Shown here one piece after another: positions 4,064 through 4,242 of a stretch of DNA of 64,000 nucleotides. The notes beneath the pieces were generated by a model. It was given only the letters and a program-made list of their open reading frames with translations. It ran no database searches and had not been told where the DNA came from. The stretch lies in NCBI RefSeq assembly GCF_056712565.1, contig NZ_CM160072.1; one strand, given 5' to 3'. Position 1 is the first letter of the stretch. Every line of letters begins with the position of its first letter. The position numbers and the translations under genes were made by a program.

Positions 4064-4242
4064 AGAACTTCCTGTTTTAATTATTGATTATCCTTAATCA
4101 TAAAAATAATGTATGTATTTATTAATTAAATACATATTACTAATATAAATAAATTTTGCTTGATTCATGCAAGCGGCATTAATACTATTTATACTAACGT
4201 CAATATACAACCCACCCAATCTATTTTATTAGAACATACATC
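4064..4242. promoter_or_regulatory. AT-rich divergent promoter region between gspAB and gspC-O (likely H-NS silencing target)
   Basis: 179-bp strongly AT-rich spacer between divergent operons; H-NS silencing of this locus is established knowledge. Confidence 0.5.

Follow-up and report, generated by a model that had tools for sequence, protein, structure and literature searches.

The AT-rich gspA-gspC spacer of Escherichia coli as a densely constrained and probably bidirectional control region of the T2SS-alpha operons

The DNA analysed here is a 64-kb stretch, hereafter termed the window, which represents a segment of the Escherichia coli chromosome and matches B2-type strains, among them NU14 and ATCC 11775, with 100% identity. 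It harbors the divergently oriented genes gspA and gspC, which head the gspAB and gspC-O operons of the E. coli T2SS-alpha (chitinase) secretion system. To the left of gspA lie gspB and the S10 ribosomal operon, while the right side of gspC is occupied by gspD to gspO, bfr, bfd, chiA, and tufA. A first-pass annotation of this DNA had placed a divergent control region of 179 bp between gspAB and gspC-O, and the boundaries of the open reading frames and of the annotated genes match this interval exactly (Table 1).

The same annotation had called the spacer strongly AT-rich with several A/T-tracts, and its composition and position, both seen directly in the DNA, bear this description out. The GC content of the spacer amounts to 0.229 (22.9%; G or C at 41 of 179 positions), compared with 0.511 (51.1%) for the 64-kb window, and just 0.016% of all 179-bp stretches in the window are as GC-low, the minimum of 0.223 being reached by the stretch that starts at 4060. 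Runs consisting exclusively of A and T extend over 11, 11, 17, 17, and 10 bp. In addition, the spacer contains ten AnTm tracts of at least 4 bp, including AAATTTT at 4151-4157, but just four homopolymer runs that reach 4 bp or more. The TpA step accounts for 16.9% (0.169) of the spacer dinucleotides against 4.4% (0.044) window-wide, which corresponds to a fourfold enrichment.

The AT-rich tract exceeds the spacer and is bipartite, covering about 4051-4230 and, within gspC, 4276-4400, and the two parts are separated by a patch of normal GC content around the gspC start codon. The island of scanned segments with a GC content of 0.30 or lower covers about 3983-4455. For the part inside gspC, the AT-richness may only mirror the Ile/Asn/Phe-rich membrane segment encoded there. 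The second AT-richest island of the window is the region upstream of chiA (18546-18836), and the remaining low-GC islands are the bfd/chiA and cysG/yhfL spacers.

Table 1. Genes and sequence features at the gspA-gspC locus (window coordinates; L010 is the closest orthologous locus)
Feature	Position	Strand	Description
gspA	2594-4063	minus	ORF, 489 aa, annotated
gspA-gspC intergenic spacer	4064-4242		179 bp, from ORF and annotation boundaries
gspA ribosome-binding region ACAGGAAGT	4067-4075	minus	AGGAAG located 6 nt before the ATG (4063)
Proximal gspA promoter candidate	4097-4125	minus	-35 TTAATA 4125..4120, 17-bp spacer, -10 TATGAT 4102..4097
Perfect inverted repeat TATGTATTTA-TTAAT-TAAATACATA	4112-4136		10+5+10; overlaps the proximal gspA -35
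Proposed SlyA site TTATATTAGTAA (TTA-N6-TAA)	4137-4148	minus	From the Table of PMC5797941; centre 79 bp upstream of the gspA ATG
Conserved AATATAAATAAATTT block	4142-4156		Directly upstream of the gspC -35; fully conserved in L010
Best H-NS motif match TAAATAAATT	4146-4155		8/10, inside the AATATAAATAAATTT block
Predicted gspC sigma-70 promoter	4160-4188	plus	-35 TTGATT 4160-4165, 17-bp spacer, -10 TACTAT 4183-4188
Two TAGTAT -10-like hexamers	4187..4182, 4196..4191	minus	6 nt upstream of the reported gspA ends -112 and -121, respectively
Predicted gspC leader	4195-4242	plus	About 47 nt; 26-bp and 13-bp blocks identical in L010
gspC	4243-5058	plus	ORF, 271 aa, GTG start, annotated
Second AT-rich patch	4276-4400		gspC 5' coding region, N-terminal membrane segment; GC 0.18-0.26
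Perfect TATAAT	4314..4309	minus	Inside gspC, 9 nt upstream of the reported gspA end -236 (4299)

Promoter elements on the two strands

Genomic SELEX with RpoD lists the hexamer pair TTGATT-17-TACTAT for gspC, together with an H-NS flag (PMC3946193), and transcription from this predicted promoter would start at about 4193-4197. Six syntenic loci of other Enterobacteriaceae were found via protein homologs, in each of which gspE-D-C is divergent from gspA-B, followed by rpsJ, and a seven-way alignment was built from these and the locus described here. The promoter-like elements and their phylogenetic footprint are directly visible in this alignment. CTTG (4159-4162) and T.ATA.TATT (4180-4189) are invariant in all seven loci, in which the identity of GspA goes down to 41%. 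Several positions of the leader and the TG of the gspC start codon are invariant as well, and two species use ATG at this place, which supports the annotated GTG start. No Shine-Dalgarno sequence was found in the leader sequence before this GTG.

A consensus promoter scan yielded three sites compared with 2.9 in shuffled sequences, thus no excess, and the gspC promoter fell below its threshold. Since the DNA is AT-rich, consensus scans of this kind are uninformative.

On the opposite strand, the RpoD SELEX lists TTAATA-17-TATGAT for gspAB, again with an H-NS flag (PMC3946193). This proximal promoter candidate was also recovered independently by the consensus scan, and its -10 hexamer is embedded in a stretch of 24 bp (4086-4109) without a single difference in L010. 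It coincides with none of the gspA 5' ends reported in the readable literature. Earlier-reported gspA 5' ends at -97, -112, -121, and -236 are listed by Mendoza-Vargas et al. (PMC2760140), and they map to 4160, 4175, 4184, and 4299 of the window. The ends -112 and -121 are each preceded by a TAGTAT hexamer and the end -236 by a perfect TATAAT (Table 1), while no convincing -10 element was found for the end -97. The 9-bp block of the gspA ribosome-binding region is conserved in L010.

The minus-strand TAGTAT at 4187..4182 overlaps the gspC -10 element TACTAT by five of the six base pairs. Given their offset, the two starts would be about 20 bp from each other, compared with the modal 18 bp of bidirectional promoters. 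We infer that gspA and gspC share one bidirectional -10 core.

Promoter-like sequences are abundant in this region. The gspA(-)/gspC(+) pair is among the 78 promoter islands (entry 3453428_392, 392 bp, H-NS flag K; Panyukov & Ozoline 2013, PMC3661553), and this island, when mapped via the K-12 annotation, would cover about 4071-4462 of the window. Within 4000-4450, a total of 19 hexamers agree with TATAAT in at least five of six positions, six of them in plus and 13 in minus orientation.

The conserved entity might also be an unannotated small RNA or small protein located in the spacer. The spacer is overlapped by four small ORFs (21-49 aa), and the reported gspA 5' ends imply long leaders and antisense transcription (PMC2760140). 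However, these ORFs are low-complexity, AT-rich translations without a ribosome-binding site, and conservation follows the promoter hexamers and the leader rather than any reading frame. Moreover, an Rfam scan of 3800-4600 returned no family, its best hit (E = 0.31, a miRNA) lying far under the gathering score, and RNA folding gave z-scores of -1.69 for the gspC leader and -0.42 for the long gspA leader, with no significant structure in either. Hardly any credence can therefore be given to a hidden product, and the conserved elements are preferably regarded as those of promoters and leaders.

Conservation of the spacer within and beyond Escherichia coli

The spacer is present in 3132 of 5426 complete E. 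coli genomes, and in 3128 of these 3132 it is at least 99% identical, that is, with one mismatch at most. Segments of equal length taken from the gspA 5' coding region and from the gspC 5' coding region, the latter including the AT-rich patch, reach the same identity in merely 451 of 3137 and 458 of 3118 genomes, respectively, and most genomes stand at 96.6% in both. The segment upstream of chiA does so in 446 of 3162 genomes, with most at 97.2%. Expressed in bases, the flanking coding segments and the chiA upstream region are mostly five to six bases off, as against no more than one for the spacer. The gsp cluster and the chiA upstream region are present or absent together, and in about 42% of the complete E. 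coli genomes the system is deleted along with its substrate gene chiA.

Between K-12 and the window, the spacer differs at none of 179 positions where 5.5 differences were expected (P of 0.004), while the gsp genes differ at 2.7-3.5% of positions (about 3%). The longest SNP-free run of the locus in this comparison, 4043-4256, is centred on the spacer.

A comparable constraint was observed across species. In L010, whose GspA is 75% identical, the spacer is 85% identical, while third codon positions reach 57% (p of roughly 1e-9 to 1e-10), and half of the 26 spacer differences fall in 4110-4141 (p = 2e-4). The perfectly conserved blocks comprise the gspA ribosome-binding region, 4086-4109, 4142-4156, the gspC -35 and -10 elements, and a 26-bp stretch of the leader. 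In the distant syntenic loci, GspA is 41-45% identical although the rplC DNA is 95-96% identical. The GC content of these distant spacers is only 0.34-0.39, which indicates that the conserved promoter is older than the extreme AT-richness. Each orthologous locus has its lowest-GC 100 bp within or adjoining the 5' coding region of gspC. The extreme AT-richness of the spacer looks like a feature of the Escherichia lineage, and the conserved promoter does not need it.

Several further candidates were rejected as comparators. A GspA search of genome contigs gave two contaminant contigs only: L008, which carries a Flavobacterium label but is K-12-like E. coli DNA full of indels, and L009, a fragment of just 273 bp. 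Three sequences considered as intermediate orthologs (P0004, P0006, and P0011) turned out to be E. coli with internal GspA deletions, which added no depth.

The invariance of the spacer could also be attributed to a low local mutation rate, caused by AT equilibrium or by shielding through H-NS, or to a recent recombinational sweep. With G or C at just 41 of 179 positions, few targets are left for GC-to-AT mutation, and nucleoid proteins are reported to influence mutation dynamics (PMC3527292); the single pairwise zero, with its P of 0.004, is modest. On the other hand, the chiA upstream region is equally AT-rich and H-NS-regulated, yet it diverges normally (446/3162), and so does the AT-rich gspC 5' patch, which belongs to the same promoter island. 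Phylogroup-specific SNPs are located 14-21 bp from either edge of the spacer, and a recombinational sweep is disfavoured because it would have erased them. The constraint is furthermore shared between species, and the clustering of differences in one 32-bp block (p = 2e-4) fits site-specific selection. An explanation by mutation rate or sweep is accordingly deemed quite unlikely; as read from these genome comparisons, in which it is directly seen, the spacer is under strong purifying selection.

As composition alone cannot explain an invariance that holds base by base, extra sequence-specific constraints must exist. They could stem from the promoters that overlap on opposite strands, from both leaders, and possibly from further regulators. 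A candidate site for a further sequence-specific regulator is offered by the perfect inverted repeat at 4112-4136, which about 2% of dinucleotide shuffles match equally well. This repeat sits in the one block where the spacer diverges fast (4110-4141), is absent from the orthologous loci and thus E. coli-specific, and holds one natural SNP, T4116C.

H-NS, SlyA and the shape of the spacer DNA

The spacer is 100% identical to that of E. coli K-12, base for base, so experiments performed in K-12 apply at the sequence level, and we infer that their results would carry over to this B2-type strain. The dependence on H-NS and its occupancy, the binding of RNA polymerase, and the binding of SlyA are all reported in the K-12 literature for this identical sequence. 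H-NS occupancy, the absence of which the first-pass annotation had named as evidence against its own reading, is reported for K-12 by ChIP-seq (Kahramanoglou) and ChIP-chip (Oshima), in which the gspA/gspC region is flagged as H-NS-bound according to two independent compilations (PMC3661553; PMC5797941), and by IPOD-HR, in which the gspA-gspC spacer is the sole prominent non-RNAP occupancy peak nearby (bioRxiv 10.1101/2020.01.29.924811). Derepression in hns mutants, accompanied by secretion of ChiA, is credited by several papers to Francetic et al. 2000.

Silencing by H-NS and StpA had been claimed for this locus. The H-NS part is upheld, second-hand, by the K-12 occupancy and by the derepression in hns mutants; for StpA, the literature search found no text tying it to the gspA/gspC locus. 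By its title, an H-NS study of a gsp cluster (Yang 2007) concerns the other E. coli T2SS, yghJ-pppA-yghG-gspC-M. StpA is reportedly included in that work. The H-NS interpretation of the gspA/gspC spacer is essentially right and has already been published in detail.

Curran et al. give an apparent Kd of 50-100 nM for the shift of a 179-bp gspA-gspC fragment by SlyA and describe a 2.4-fold increase of gspCDEF upon overproduction of SlyA (PMC5797941). The fragment used in this EMSA is the spacer, since the primers TC59 and TC60 match 4064-4086 and 4217-4242. The proposed SlyA site (Table 1) is not conserved in L010. The H-NS motif tCGATAAATT, taken from PMC2094087, has one 8/10 match in the spacer compared with 0.75 expected from composition-matched shuffles and 0.21 matches per 179 bp over the whole window, and the TTA-N6-TAA pattern was observed twice versus 1.25 times expected. 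Consensus matches for H-NS and SlyA in the spacer are thus not above composition-matched shuffles and are for this reason unusable as evidence.

It might be argued that the spacer is AT-rich simply because divergent promoter regions ordinarily are, being made up of UP-element-like A/T DNA, two promoters, and two leaders, that H-NS is incidental, and that weak or activator-less promoters are quiet by themselves. Such a view would be in line with the presence of the conserved core promoter in orthologous spacers of GC 0.34-0.39, with H-NS motif matches at chance level, with the non-consensus hexamers TTGATT/TACTAT and TAGTAT, and with the small response of gspCDEF to overproduced SlyA. It is nevertheless considered unlikely. 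The spacer is the AT-richest 179 bp in the 64 kb, well past the other intergenic regions; H-NS occupancy is reported for it from the two ChIP datasets and IPOD-HR; and the derepression in hns mutants is repeatedly cited. Furthermore, RNA polymerase alone binds in SELEX, which implies that the promoters are not intrinsically inaccessible (PMC3946193). Recruitment of H-NS by the AT-rich DNA is therefore the preferred reading.

A different question is by which property of the DNA H-NS would recognise the spacer. A connection of the A/T-tracts with curvature was implied by the curvature check proposed at first pass, and it was not sustained when this check was run. In a wedge model, the mean curvature of the spacer is 15.5 degrees per 31 bp compared with a window median of 15.6, its maximum lies at the 86th percentile, and the end-to-end compaction is ordinary; in this model the relative ranking alone is meaningful, and a phasing test without parameters was added for that reason. 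It detected no helical phasing of AA/TT in the spacer, the periodicity at 9.5-11.5 bp being under the shuffle mean. AT and TA steps number 62 versus 48 AA and TT steps. The comparison with the chiA upstream region, which had likewise been suggested, agreed in one respect and differed in another: the chiA upstream region is also AT-rich, but it is A-tract-rich with a dominance of AA and TT steps and reaches the 99.6th percentile of curvature in the same model, unlike the gsp spacer.

Recognition of the spacer by intrinsic curvature from phased A/T-tracts is thus very improbable. Its ten short AnTm tracts, AAATTTT at 4151-4157 among them, and the status of curvature as a classical correlate of H-NS sites (PMC2094087) would favour it. 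Against it stand a mean curvature equal to the window median, an AA/TT periodicity below the shuffle mean, the excess of AT/TA over AA/TT steps, and the fact that the chiA upstream control does score as curved. Being TpA-rich, unphased in its AA/TT steps, and at the window median of curvature, the spacer DNA is probably flexible and without phased-A-tract curving. The paper on the H-NS motif emphasises a central T-A step (PMC2094087), and such TpA-rich DNA remains compatible with H-NS binding.

Proposed control of the operons and comparison with known systems

With considerable confidence, the spacer is interpreted as the shared control region of gspAB and gspC-O, in which a probably bidirectional core is placed in an H-NS-recruiting AT-rich tract and silencing is antagonised in part by SlyA. 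The gspC sigma-70 promoter would reside in a compact core at about 4160-4200, and RNA polymerase would probably engage this one symmetric core either way through the overlapping -10 elements of opposite strands, while the proximal candidate at 4097-4125 may serve as a second gspA promoter. The bipartite, TpA-rich and AT-rich tract of about 400 bp (4051-4230 and 4276-4400) would recruit H-NS, which would oligomerise over, and possibly bridge across, the core promoter and the gspC start. H-NS would in this manner keep gspAB and gspC-O off in ordinary culture, and SlyA, which binds the spacer, would partly relieve the silencing.

That an AT-rich spacer at this E. coli locus is silenced by H-NS is, by itself, textbook-level knowledge and alters no current view. 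New, though modest, additions are the near-invariance of the spacer across E. coli and the footprint of the gspC promoter, and according to them the spacer is a densely constrained, probably bidirectional promoter and not just an AT-rich sink for H-NS. Where this system, long called cryptic, survives, its control region is better conserved than the genes it controls, which argues for real, finely tuned expression in nature. Such natural expression fits the reports in which gsp and chiA are linked to isolates from mastitis and to mammary-gland fitness (PMC11390585). A further-reaching, tentative and rather doubtful proposal is that the spacer constitutes an unusually constrained switch, frozen in E. 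coli including the palindrome at 4112-4136, through which one or more further sequence-specific regulators turn on T2SS-alpha and ChiA in the natural niche, the system being actively maintained wherever it has not been deleted. The interval 4105-4200 provides a short, well-defined target for finding the missing inducer or regulator.

Among known systems, the closest is the H-NS-silenced T2SS-alpha of K-12, whose gspA-gspC region is the same locus with an identical spacer and the same flanking genes, at the same chromosomal place between the S10 operon and bfr/chiA. The host differs in that it is B2-type here, and the gsp coding sequences are about 3% divergent.

The chiA upstream region resembles the gsp spacer in being AT-rich, in being repressed by H-NS according to the literature citing Francetic et al. 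2000, and in its presence or absence together with the gsp cluster. It differs in that it is dominated by A-tracts, predicted to be curved, and divergent at a normal rate. According to the literature, it is activated by BglJ-RcsB; no motif beyond chance was found to be shared between it and the gsp spacer.

Like the promoter islands, the gsp region carries many overlapping -10-like hexamers on both strands. According to their description, those islands yield no productive transcription and go with foreign DNA (PMC3661553), whereas the gsp core is footprinted across genera at a syntenic position. The cross-genus footprint and the purifying selection on the spacer speak for an ancient promoter that works, and against mere promoter-like noise.

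In H-NS silencing of the bgl and proU type (PMC2094087), elements located upstream and downstream of the promoter take part, and the AT-rich patches of gsp likewise flank the core promoter and the start codon. By analogy, the patch in the 5' region of gspC may correspond to the downstream element of the bgl/proU layout.

Bacterial bidirectional promoters have been published as resting on -10 elements that overlap, and AT-rich DNA bound by H-NS is enriched in them (bioRxiv 10.1101/2020.01.31.928960). The gsp hexamers depart from the modal arrangement of 18 bp, in which positions 2 and 6 pair, and the gsp spacer has extra gspA starts and a proximal promoter candidate, together with a gspC start that is a prediction. 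In both cases, however, -10 elements of opposite strands overlap (Warman et al., bioRxiv 10.1101/2020.01.31.928960; PMC12825309). The reported gspA and predicted gspC starts would be separated by 11-20 bp, a distance inside the 7-25 bp of the definition given by Warman et al., and the gsp spacer similarly represents H-NS-bound, AT-rich DNA that drives mRNAs on either side.

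Hairpin, inverted repeat and reported gspA 5' ends

The only GC-rich patch in the AT-rich spacer between the divergent gspA and gspC genes is formed by a terminator-like hairpin (table below), which overlaps the predicted gspC -35 element and, in the gspA transcripts that have been reported, lies at the 5' end. Four previously reported gspA 5' ends (-97, -112, -121 and -236) are listed in the table of transcription start sites within coding regions of PMC2760140, where the attached reference number leads to an unrelated cysK paper. The -97 end falls inside the 3' arm of the hairpin, which may reflect RNA processing, and a single natural SNP, G4158T, touches the hairpin.

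A perfect inverted repeat is also found in the spacer, and a repeat of equal quality was produced in about 2% of shuffled sequences. Within E. coli it is nearly invariant, with T4116C as the one variant. Between species, it lies in the sole fast-diverging block of the spacer, and the orthologs lack it.

Features of the gspA-gspC region and AT-rich islands of the window
Feature	Position	Strand	Remarks
Inverted repeat, TATGTATTTA-TTAAT-TAAATACATA	4112-4136		perfect; overlaps proximal gspA -35
Terminator-like hairpin, GCTTG-N7-CAAGC then A/T tail	4158-4174	minus	
gspC start codon	4243		GTG
AT-rich patch, gspC 5' coding	4276-4400		GC 0.18-0.26
TATAAT	4314..4309	minus	perfect
AT-rich island, bfd upstream / chiA downstream spacer	15627-15815		predicted curved, 99.4th percentile
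AT-rich island, chiA upstream	18546-18836		mostly A-tracts; predicted curvature, 99.6th percentile
AT-rich island, cysG-yhfL spacer	47865-48102		

The gspC start and AT-richness beyond the spacer

The position of the gspC start is kept in all seven loci compared (this one and six syntenic Enterobacteriaceae orthologs), two of which use ATG, and no recognisable Shine-Dalgarno sequence precedes it in any of them. The 5' coding part of gspC contains a second AT-rich patch, and in every orthologous locus the 100 bp of lowest GC content lie within or adjoin this part of the gene. Since the TATAAT on the minus strand of this patch is located 9 nt upstream of the reported -236 end, a long gspA leader running antisense to the gspC start is implied.

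Elsewhere in the window, the region upstream of the chitinase gene chiA ranks as AT-rich island number two, and its divergence among E. coli genomes is ordinary. No motif common to this region and the gsp spacer was detected beyond chance.

Divergence, disruption and loss of the locus

In five close Enterobacteriaceae loci (L011, L012 and L014-L016) compared with window 2173-6994, rplC retains 95-96% DNA identity, and protein identities amount to 40-45% for GspA, 30-38% for GspB, about 50% for GspC and 80-87% for GspD, which indicates that the assembly and accessory genes adjoining the spacer evolve much faster than the secretin. E. coli gspA was also encountered on contigs of assemblies labelled Flavobacterium paronense CECT 8460 (L008, NZ_JAUFQN010000012.1), a K-12-like long-read contig full of indels, and Alkalicoccobacillus porphyridii P16 (L009, NZ_VLXZ01000212.1); both are probably contamination.

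The spacer has been removed by two independent IS1-associated deletions. Strain TL012 (L006) has lost it together with the 5' portions of the two flanking genes, gspA and gspC, and strain EC2001 (L017) lacks the spacer from position 36 onward and the whole of gspC, so that IS1 now lies directly upstream of gspD. In a third strain (hit H82), IS1 is present near gspB. Among 5426 complete E. coli genomes, approximately 42% are without gspB to gspM and chiA (window ~2120-18836); the example examined (L007) displays the gene order rpsJ, a 155-aa gspO remnant, bfr, bfd and tuf. Because similar numbers of genomes carry the gsp cluster and chiA (3132-3163 each), it appears that the secretion system was lost jointly with the gene for its substrate.
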